Of a DNA stretch of 64,000 nucleotides, positions 58,817 through 58,990 are shown one piece after another. Source of the stretch: Escherichia coli (GTDB taxonomy: Bacteria > Pseudomonadota > Gammaproteobacteria > Enterobacterales > Enterobacteriaceae). Every line of letters begins with the position of its first letter. Position 1 is the first letter of the stretch. The translations under genes and the position numbers were made by a program. The notes under the pieces were generated by a model, which saw nothing but the letters and a program-made list of their open reading frames with translations, did no database searches and was not told the DNA's origin. The stretch lies in the NCBI RefSeq assembly GCF_044647545.1, contig NZ_CP172818.1, one strand, 5' to 3'.

Positions 58817-58954
58817 CTATTCTCTCCACTGAAATCATCCGCTAACGAATCATCCCGGTCTTCGTACGTACCGGGCGGGCTACTTCGTGGGCGTCCTGCC
58901 TGTTTGTTGTTTCTCTTGGGTACATTATGTATCTCAAAGGTACATTGTCAAGTA

Positions 58955-58978
58955 TAAAAAAACCTGCCGAAGCAGGTT
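58955..58978 (-). terminator. rho-independent terminator after cohE
   Basis: minus-strand hairpin acctgc-ttcg-gcaggt followed by UUUUUUU (plus strand aaaaaaacctgccgaagcaggt). Confidence 0.7.
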
Positions 58979-58990
58979 CATAAACATTGA

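Follow-up and report, generated by a model that had tools for sequence, protein, structure and literature searches.

The window, a stretch of 64,000 nucleotides, is Escherichia coli K-12 DNA, with positions 58500-59960 being 100% identical to MG1655 and BW25113, and it includes the left part of prophage e14, to which the genes ymfI, ymfJ, ymfK/cohE and ymfT/croE all belong. The open reading frame of cohE (58991-59665, minus strand; RefSeq name ymfK, 'LexA family protein') encodes a CI/LexA-type repressor of 224 aa, that of croE (ymfT; 59756-59956, plus strand) a Cro-like protein of 66 aa, and that of ymfJ (58508-58816, minus strand), the first gene of the leftward operon, a protein of 102 aa. 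Along the locus the cohE stop (58991) is followed by a terminator hairpin (58960-58979), a promoter (58924-58951) and ymfJ (58816), whose Shine-Dalgarno sequence GGAGAG, read off the sequence at 58822-58827 (minus strand), lies 5 nt upstream of the ATG. RefSeq annotates no regulatory feature in this stretch.

CohE matches Peptidase_S24 with residues 93-212 (E 1.5e-26), resembles the C-terminal domain of lambda CI (E 2e-9) and has a PHROG match to phrog_4, 'transcriptional repressor'. In the translation we recognised the motifs Ala100-Gly101, Ser138 and Lys176, which the repressor alignment shows to be conserved. Because of the S24 domain and these conserved motifs, and given what LexA and CI do, RecA-stimulated self-cleavage of CohE is expected. 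CroE has a PHROG match to phrog_35, also 'transcriptional repressor', and its Pfam matches to YdaS_toxin and HTH_3 are both under the curated cut-offs. For YmfJ we found no Pfam family, its sole PHROG matches being of unknown function (phrog_12693).

The intrinsic terminator of cohE (58953-58979, minus strand) is formed by the stem-loop at 58960-58979, with 8 pairs and a loop of 4, and a subsequent U-tract, the tail being TTTTATACTT. It is conserved in phages SfV, Ayreon, yong2 and PhiR29, with the records of SfV and Ayreon carrying a terminator annotation there, and EPP-1 has another hairpin at the same position. A promoter scan predicted a sigma-70 promoter on the minus strand (PL/PymfJ), composed of the -35 hexamer TTGACA (58946-58951), a 16-nt spacer and the -10 hexamer CATAAT (58924-58929), and agreeing with the consensus at 11/12 positions. 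Among the promoter-like sites in 56300-58520 and 58400-60100, the two regions covered by the scan, it is the best, and the depositors of Ayreon annotated a promoter at the homologous position. As the promoter begins 8 nt past the hairpin, the T-run of the terminator falls in the position of an UP element. Promoter geometry only was used to predict the transcription start, an A at 58917 (minus strand), 7 nt after the -10 hexamer; a mapped ymfJ start site was not among the data that we found.

The cohE/croE switch contains the operators O1 (TTGTACC-GTTAA-GGTACAA, 59682-59700), a perfect dyad, and O3 (ATGTACA-CCGGA-GGTACAT, 59732-59750), located directly before croE. The site O2 (AAGTATC-TTGAA-GGTTCAT, 59699-59717), which belongs to the repeat families D1/D2, overlaps a -35-like TTGAAG for croE. 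In the matrix scan described below O2 scored 10.38 and ranked 11, with 4.9 such sites being expected per 64 kb, so that it is not significant by itself, and since the score is within chance we grade it as a possible operator only. Both O1 and O2 are conserved in yong2 and EPP-1. O3 is part of a longer imperfect palindrome (59723-59759, TCATGTAATATGTAC-N7-GTACATATTGTATGA), the 15-nt arms of which are 87% complementary and which reaches the croE start codon; this palindrome may offer extra contacts or a second overlapping site.

The original prediction drew attention to two copies of GGTACATT in the ymfJ promoter region just past the cohE terminator, and both are found there on the plus strand, at 58919-58926 and 58939-58946, their location being confirmed by the minus-strand hairpin at 58960-58979 and the promoter at 58924-58951. 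As a functional unit, the 8-mer was rejected: the window contains 3 copies against 1.6 expected, and 22/100 shuffles contained at least 3. In 64 kb of this composition, chance alone would give about 27 exact 8-mer direct repeats with a spacing of 8-30 bp. The whole window holds 162 of them, which points to other locally repetitive elements elsewhere in it. The palindrome TACAT-T-ATGTA that had been noted at the first copy is likewise present (58921-58931) and contains the -10 hexamer, but it is no dyad site itself, being the junction between the right half of one 19-bp site (A) and the left half of the next (B). Thus, the shared operator motif stood, whereas the operator unit proved to be a 19-bp imperfect dyad, neither the 8-mer direct repeat nor the palindrome.

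The comparison of the ymfJ promoter region with the switch was carried out with two methods. A repeat finder assigned 58908-58924 and 58928-58944 to the same family as 59683-59699, 59700-59716 and 59731-59750 (D1-D3). An exact search for GTAC-N7-GTAC detects the two switch sites O1 and O3 and misses the sites next to ymfJ; because the left halves of the latter read GTAT and GTTT, we replaced this search by a weight matrix, which was built from the four half-sites of O1 and O3 only and scanned over the whole window. Site B (58927-58945) reached a matrix score of 16.67 and rank 3, right after the two training sites, with 0.02 such sites being expected per 64 kb. Site A (58907-58925) scored 13.45 (rank 5; 0.4-0.6 expected per 64 kb) and, taken singly, is not beyond chance, its distal half being degenerate. 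Two sites that score at least as high as A and lie 17-26 bp apart occur once in the window and in 0/200 simulated windows. Hence, a matrix made from the switch alone recovers both ymfJ-side sites, bearing out the earlier remark that the half-sites resemble those of the switch, and repeat families and matrix agree on a shared motif. The two sites have the common form (A/T)TGTAyC-N5-GGTACA(T/A), i.e. 7+5+7, with half matches of 6/7 and 7/7 in site B and of 5/7 and 7/7 in site A, which is weak for this reason. Outside the e14 early regulatory region the matrix also hit 21715-21733 (TTGTATC-ATAAA-GGTTCAT, score 13.5) and 56195-56213 inside lit (ATGTACA-GTGAT-GCTTCAA, score 12.2); as about 0.5 or more such hits are expected per 64 kb, both are probably due to chance.

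Site B corresponds to the predicted strong operator OL-B (ATGTATC-TCAAA-GGTACAT, 58927-58945), which fills the region between -35 and -10, taking up all 16 nt of the spacer plus 3 nt of the -10 hexamer. Site A corresponds to the predicted weak operator OL-A (TTGTTTC-TCTTG-GGTACAT, 58907-58925), which has one good half and extends from the end of the -10 hexamer across the predicted start to about +11 of the predicted promoter. From centre to centre, OL-A and OL-B are separated by 20 bp, roughly two turns of the helix, and a dimer on either site should exclude RNA polymerase. We conclude that 58907-58951 is most probably, with a probability of about 0.85, the leftward early promoter-operator (PL/OL) of prophage e14, having two sites to which CohE would bind. 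The proposal that OL-like operators allow CohE to repress the leftward operon is thereby supported, indirectly, by motif, position on the promoter, the conservation pattern in natural variants, linkage, immunity specificity and expression.

The repeats might also be mere conserved promoter sequence that resembles the switch by chance, with ymfJ being under the control of LexA or of read-through. This explanation would fit the 8-mer repeat, which is not beyond chance, and the partial overlap of the half-sites with the -10 hexamer, but it is at odds with the joint matrix test (0 pairs in 200 windows) and with the pattern of conservation. We retrieved 20 distinct natural variants with the word TTGACAATGTAC, whose use necessarily fixes the -35 hexamer and the greater part of one half-site; the -35 hexamer, being contained in this word, is present in 20/20 variants. 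The half-sites range from 1.4 to 2.0 bits/position, those free of the retrieval word having 1.87, 1.89 and 1.43 bits/position, and the central N5 spacers have 0.79 (OL-B) and 0.99 bits/position, the half-site values being partly confounded in that the -10 hexamer overlaps two half-sites. In OL-B half-sites of 1.87-2.0 bits/position flank the central 5 bp with 0.79, and in several relatives OL-B is the perfect dyad ATGTACC-N5-GGTACAT. Part of the promoter-proximal half of OL-A, ATGTACC (1.89 bits/position), falls in the discriminator, which separates -10 from +1; the distal half, with the sequence GAAACAA, is degenerate (1.43 bits/position). GTACC in the discriminator and GGTACAT on the -35 side are thus conserved although neither is constrained by the core promoter through RNA polymerase contacts, whereas the 5 bp between the half-sites vary.

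LexA control of ymfJ is listed in older compilations, as far as these are quoted in PMC11002266, and a perfect CTGT-N8-ACAG at 58313-58328 would speak for it. In the promoter region, a search of 58817-58990 for the LexA box CTGT-N8-ACAG with up to 1 mismatch gave no match, and induction of ymfJ is late, unlike that of LexA targets. Together with the finding, described below, that phages of other immunity types have the motif of their respective switch at the corresponding position, this makes conserved promoter sequence with a chance resemblance an improbable explanation, and we retain PL/OL as the preferred one. The box at 58313-58328, with the core CTGTACCAGAAAACAG, is the nearest perfect one; it is located within ymfI, which the leftward transcript reaches after ymfJ, and it may be behind the older lists that name ymfJ and intE as LexA-regulated.

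The PL/OL region is linked to the repressor gene. The cohE-croE module occurs in 1331/5426 complete E. coli genomes, only 294 of which also carry ymfJ, and in addition in SfV, SfIV, PhiR29, Ayreon, 2H10, cdtI and Stx2c-converting phages. In 29 sampled E. coli records and the immunity-module phages listed here, all module alignments extend at least to window position 58921 and most to 58908. Similarity breaks at 58841-58845, at 58894-58897, at 58908-58909 and, in EPP-1, at 58920, none of the breaks being located to the right of OL-B, which indicates that the promoter and OL-B are part of the immunity module and not of the cargo; the same holds for OL-A (in EPP-1 for most of it). The promoter, the two sites and the location of the terminator are kept in Hafnia phage yong2 and Edwardsiella phage EPP-1, whose DNA is 72% and 69% identical, respectively, the halves being better in EPP-1 (TGTATC-N5-AGTACA and TGTACC-N5-GGTACA), and the N-terminal domains of their repressors share 63/85 and 53/85 identical residues with CohE, respectively. 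The repressor genes as deposited for yong2 (558 nt) and EPP-1 (735 nt) seem to have wrong start codons; open reading frames of 224 aa (yong2, L003 2083-2755) and 222 aa (EPP-1, L004 2078-2743) align end-to-end with CohE.

Phages of other immunity types have the same layout. In YeP1, AH07 and F1055 the repressor stop is followed by a terminator, a promoter and a leader as in e14, and the N-terminal domains of their repressors are unrelated to that of CohE (6-12 identical residues). The leftward promoter of each of them repeats the phage's own switch motif, the words in common being 14, 15 and 10 nt long, respectively, and cross comparisons among the four immunity types gave shared words of at most 9 nt. 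We confined the evidence for immunity specificity to these clear cases. The length of the longest word shared by PL and switch was also evaluated for 93 loci and discarded as noisy, with words of at least 10 nt in 48% of the self and 15% of the cross comparisons, partly in T-tracts. GTAC-core repeats are also present in the PL region of HK022 (L011 4320-4360, minus strand; ATGTACTATTGGTACTTTACA and AAGTACATCA), and GTAC-core operators may be common to several immunity types, including those of AH07 and ZF40 (GTAAC-N5-GTACA).

Published expression data are in line with a leftward operon that is repressed in the resident prophage. After DNA damage ymfJ shows log2 fold changes of -0.30, 0.18, 0.20, 1.34, 4.05 and 4.83, and ymfM, a gene of the rightward operon, shows 0.04, 0.11, 0.14, 1.44, 4.00 and 4.77 in the same series, i.e. 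the two genes of opposite operons undergo a parallel, late SOS induction that differs from that of LexA targets (PMC11002266). This late co-induction, a correlation not linked to the sites themselves, would be derepression as predicted for OL/PL. In a dam mutant ymfJ is the top up-regulated gene (PMC11741368), and the YmfT iModulon groups intE, xisE, ymfH and ymfJ with ymfT, ymfL and ymfM (PMC10602906, PMC12133099). No consistent footprints emerged from a massively parallel reporter study in which the YmfT iModulon was included, and the literature that we searched, to which Mehta et al. 2004 and King et al. 2011 did not belong, contained no EMSA, footprint, ChIP or reporter results for CohE.

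CroE instead of CohE could be the main user of the sites, so that leftward transcription would be turned down after induction and ymfJ would be silent in the resident prophage for another reason. Cro and CI of lambdoid phages use the same operators, CroE is Cro-like by PHROG with weak Pfam helix-turn-helix matches, and the analyses presented here do not separate CroE from CohE. However, ymfJ is silent until late SOS and then rises together with the croE operon, as predicted for the loss of a cleavable repressor, the S24 autocleavage domain resides on CohE, and the operator motif tracks the repressor N-terminal domain across phages. We consider it unlikely that CroE is the main user and thus keep CohE as the protein that would act on the two sites.

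In the mechanism that we propose, RNA polymerase would start on the minus strand past the cohE terminator and produce a 65-nt structured leader followed by ymfJ, with the transcript probably continuing to ymfH-xisE-intE. In the resident prophage CohE dimers, presumably in a cooperative manner, would occupy OL-A and OL-B and exclude RNA polymerase. Upon DNA damage RecA-stimulated self-cleavage of CohE would free PL and PR together, and CroE may use the same sites later. This gives a concrete regulatory map of e14, which resides in the best-studied of all bacteria, and in this map CohE would control both divergent early operons via five sites with the 19-bp motif. It would explain the late SOS behaviour of ymfJ, xisE and intE although their promoter has no LexA box, and also why the YmfT iModulon spans both operons, CohE being more likely than YmfT to be the regulator of this iModulon. 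The operator coordinates given here seem to be missing from genome annotations and regulatory databases.

The e14 PL/OL is an ordinary lambdoid arrangement, with P22 being closest as its OL directly follows the repressor gene. As in lambda, P22 and 434, the sites are located on the side of the repressor gene that faces away from OR, share the OR motif, are imperfect dyads and lie adjacent to each other over the -35 and -10 regions of a strong promoter; the repressor is an autocleaving S24 protein, and left and right operons are induced jointly in SOS. In contrast to the three sites of lambda OL, two are recognisable in e14. The e14 sites, as predicted from the sequence, differ from the lambdoid ones in their 19-bp length, GTAC core and centre-to-centre distance of 20 bp, the OL-OR distance is only ~770 bp, and unlike in lambda no N gene or nut site comes next, a structured leader RNA being found instead. 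The immunity region of SfV (and also of SfIV, cdtI, Ayreon and the Stx2c phages) is nearly the same, with cI/cro being 95-98% identical to cohE/croE at the DNA level and with the same switch operators, terminator, promoter and both OL sites, whereas the downstream genes differ from those of e14. The SfV record lists a 'putative operator region' between cI and cro only and nothing at the leftward promoter, and the Ayreon record has the promoter but no operators.

The structured leader RNA comprises 65 nt (58844-58908, minus strand) and was identified by a covariance model and by covariation. A query with 58841-58912 by itself matched phages with other repressors, the 78-nt leader query hit 47 GenBank phage records, and the exact 21-mer GGCAGGACGCCCACGAAGTAG of the leader occurs in more than 120 IMG/VR contigs among the matches listed. 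Carriers include SfV, SfII, ST64B, ZF40, mEp237 and the Gifsy-like SPN3UB. Where annotated, the leader is located just past the repressor gene and the leftward promoter and before varied first genes; in e14 it begins ~10 nt after the predicted start, and the distance is similar in YeP1, AH07 and phiNP. It is a single-copy element, occurring once per locus in the 10 phage loci that have it (16 sources searched) and once in the window, and these 16 sources and the window contain no second, putR-like copy to the right of cro.

An alignment of 73 distinct 64-nt variants defined a closing helix P1 of 5-6 bp, an invariant 22-nt core, a helix P2 of 5 bp with the loop GGCAUAYGAAnn, and an AUGA linker. 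In e14, P1 is formed by 58903-58908 and 58844-58849, P2 by 58871-58875 and 58854-58858, and the core AGGCAGGACGCCCACGAAGUAG corresponds to 58880-58901 (all minus strand). In 50 variants 93.5% of the cells are paired compared to 64.1% after shuffling, with 0/500 shuffles reaching 93.5%; 10/11 pairs have changes on both sides, and slid controls are paired to 17-45%. Judging by the G-U pairs, the strand that folds is the PL transcript. A possible pseudoknot stem of 3 bp contains one covarying pair. Folding of the ymfJ 5'UTR as a single sequence is not significant (z = -1.09), so the structure emerges solely from the comparison. The e14 leader (cmsearch 74.5 bits, E 2.6e-23) is the lowest-scoring copy, others reaching 84-92 bits, and it has an extra C, a divergent P2 loop, an A.C mismatch in P1 and 2/3 of the pseudoknot pairs broken.

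With a structured RNA being encoded downstream of the start and GUACGUAC being present in the P2 loop of e14, the GTAC repeats, including GTACGTAC (58864-58871), could be thought to act in the structure of the leader RNA and not as DNA operators. The GGTACATT copies, however, precede the predicted start or are situated at it and do not form part of the covarying helices, the leader model covers 58844-58908 only, other leader copies have GGCAUAUGAAG, which lacks GTAC, in the P2 loop, and the leader is found together with many different operator sets. A role at the RNA level is therefore very improbable for the repeats, and operator DNA remains the preferred assignment of OL-A and OL-B.

The position of the leader at the 5' end of PL transcripts, whatever the downstream gene, argues for a role in cis at the transcript level, which could be antitermination, Rho evasion or stability. 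More tentatively, and with the odds against it, the leader might stand for a new and widespread class of phage RNAs acting in cis, a put-like processive antiterminator or anti-Rho element that would act on RNA polymerase via its core and of which e14 would carry a decayed copy. With its occurrence in more than 100 phages, its invariant core and its location at the position of nutL/putL in other lambdoid phages, the leader is a lead in its own right and of wider interest. A comparison with Rfam revealed no family, even at E up to 10, and literature searched by sequence contained no match to the core.

The put RNA is a processive antiterminator that works in cis, letting transcription pass terminators in dependence on the zinc-binding domain of the RNA polymerase beta' subunit. 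Like put of HK022 and HK639, the leader is a structured RNA of ~65-70 nt at the very start of the PL transcript, occurs in phages that have no recognisable N gene there, and is independent of the immunity type. It is no put RNA: the alignments gave z values of -0.4 and -0.8, compared to 14.8 for HK022 against HK639, and the covariance model of the leader (R1) had no match at the put loci of HK022 and HK639 even with the filters off. The architecture is different as well, with helix P1 closing around the 22-nt core and hairpin P2 in the e14 leader and two side-by-side stem-loops in put. A lambda-type nut element working with an N protein was rejected, too, as YmfJ lacks a Pfam family and has a PHROG of unknown function, and as the first downstream gene varies between phages.

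At 58846-58854 in e14 and at the homologous positions, the invariant AUGA linker opens a mini-ORF in many copies, which reads AUG AUU CGY UAR in e14, SfV, AH07, ZF40 and Kati and AUG AGG UGG UGA in mEp237. As its codons constitute the 3' strand of P1 and covary, the conservation is probably structural and not coding. Ayreon (L002 ~2410-2525) and cdtI (L006) combine the e14 repressor and operators with a 5' region that lacks the leader. A put-like element in this region (ACGGCG...CATGCGTCG) was considered and dismissed, the z values of 1.1-1.3 not being significant; the region resembles the stretch upstream of the leader in SfII (L016 330-400) with a z value of 10.6.
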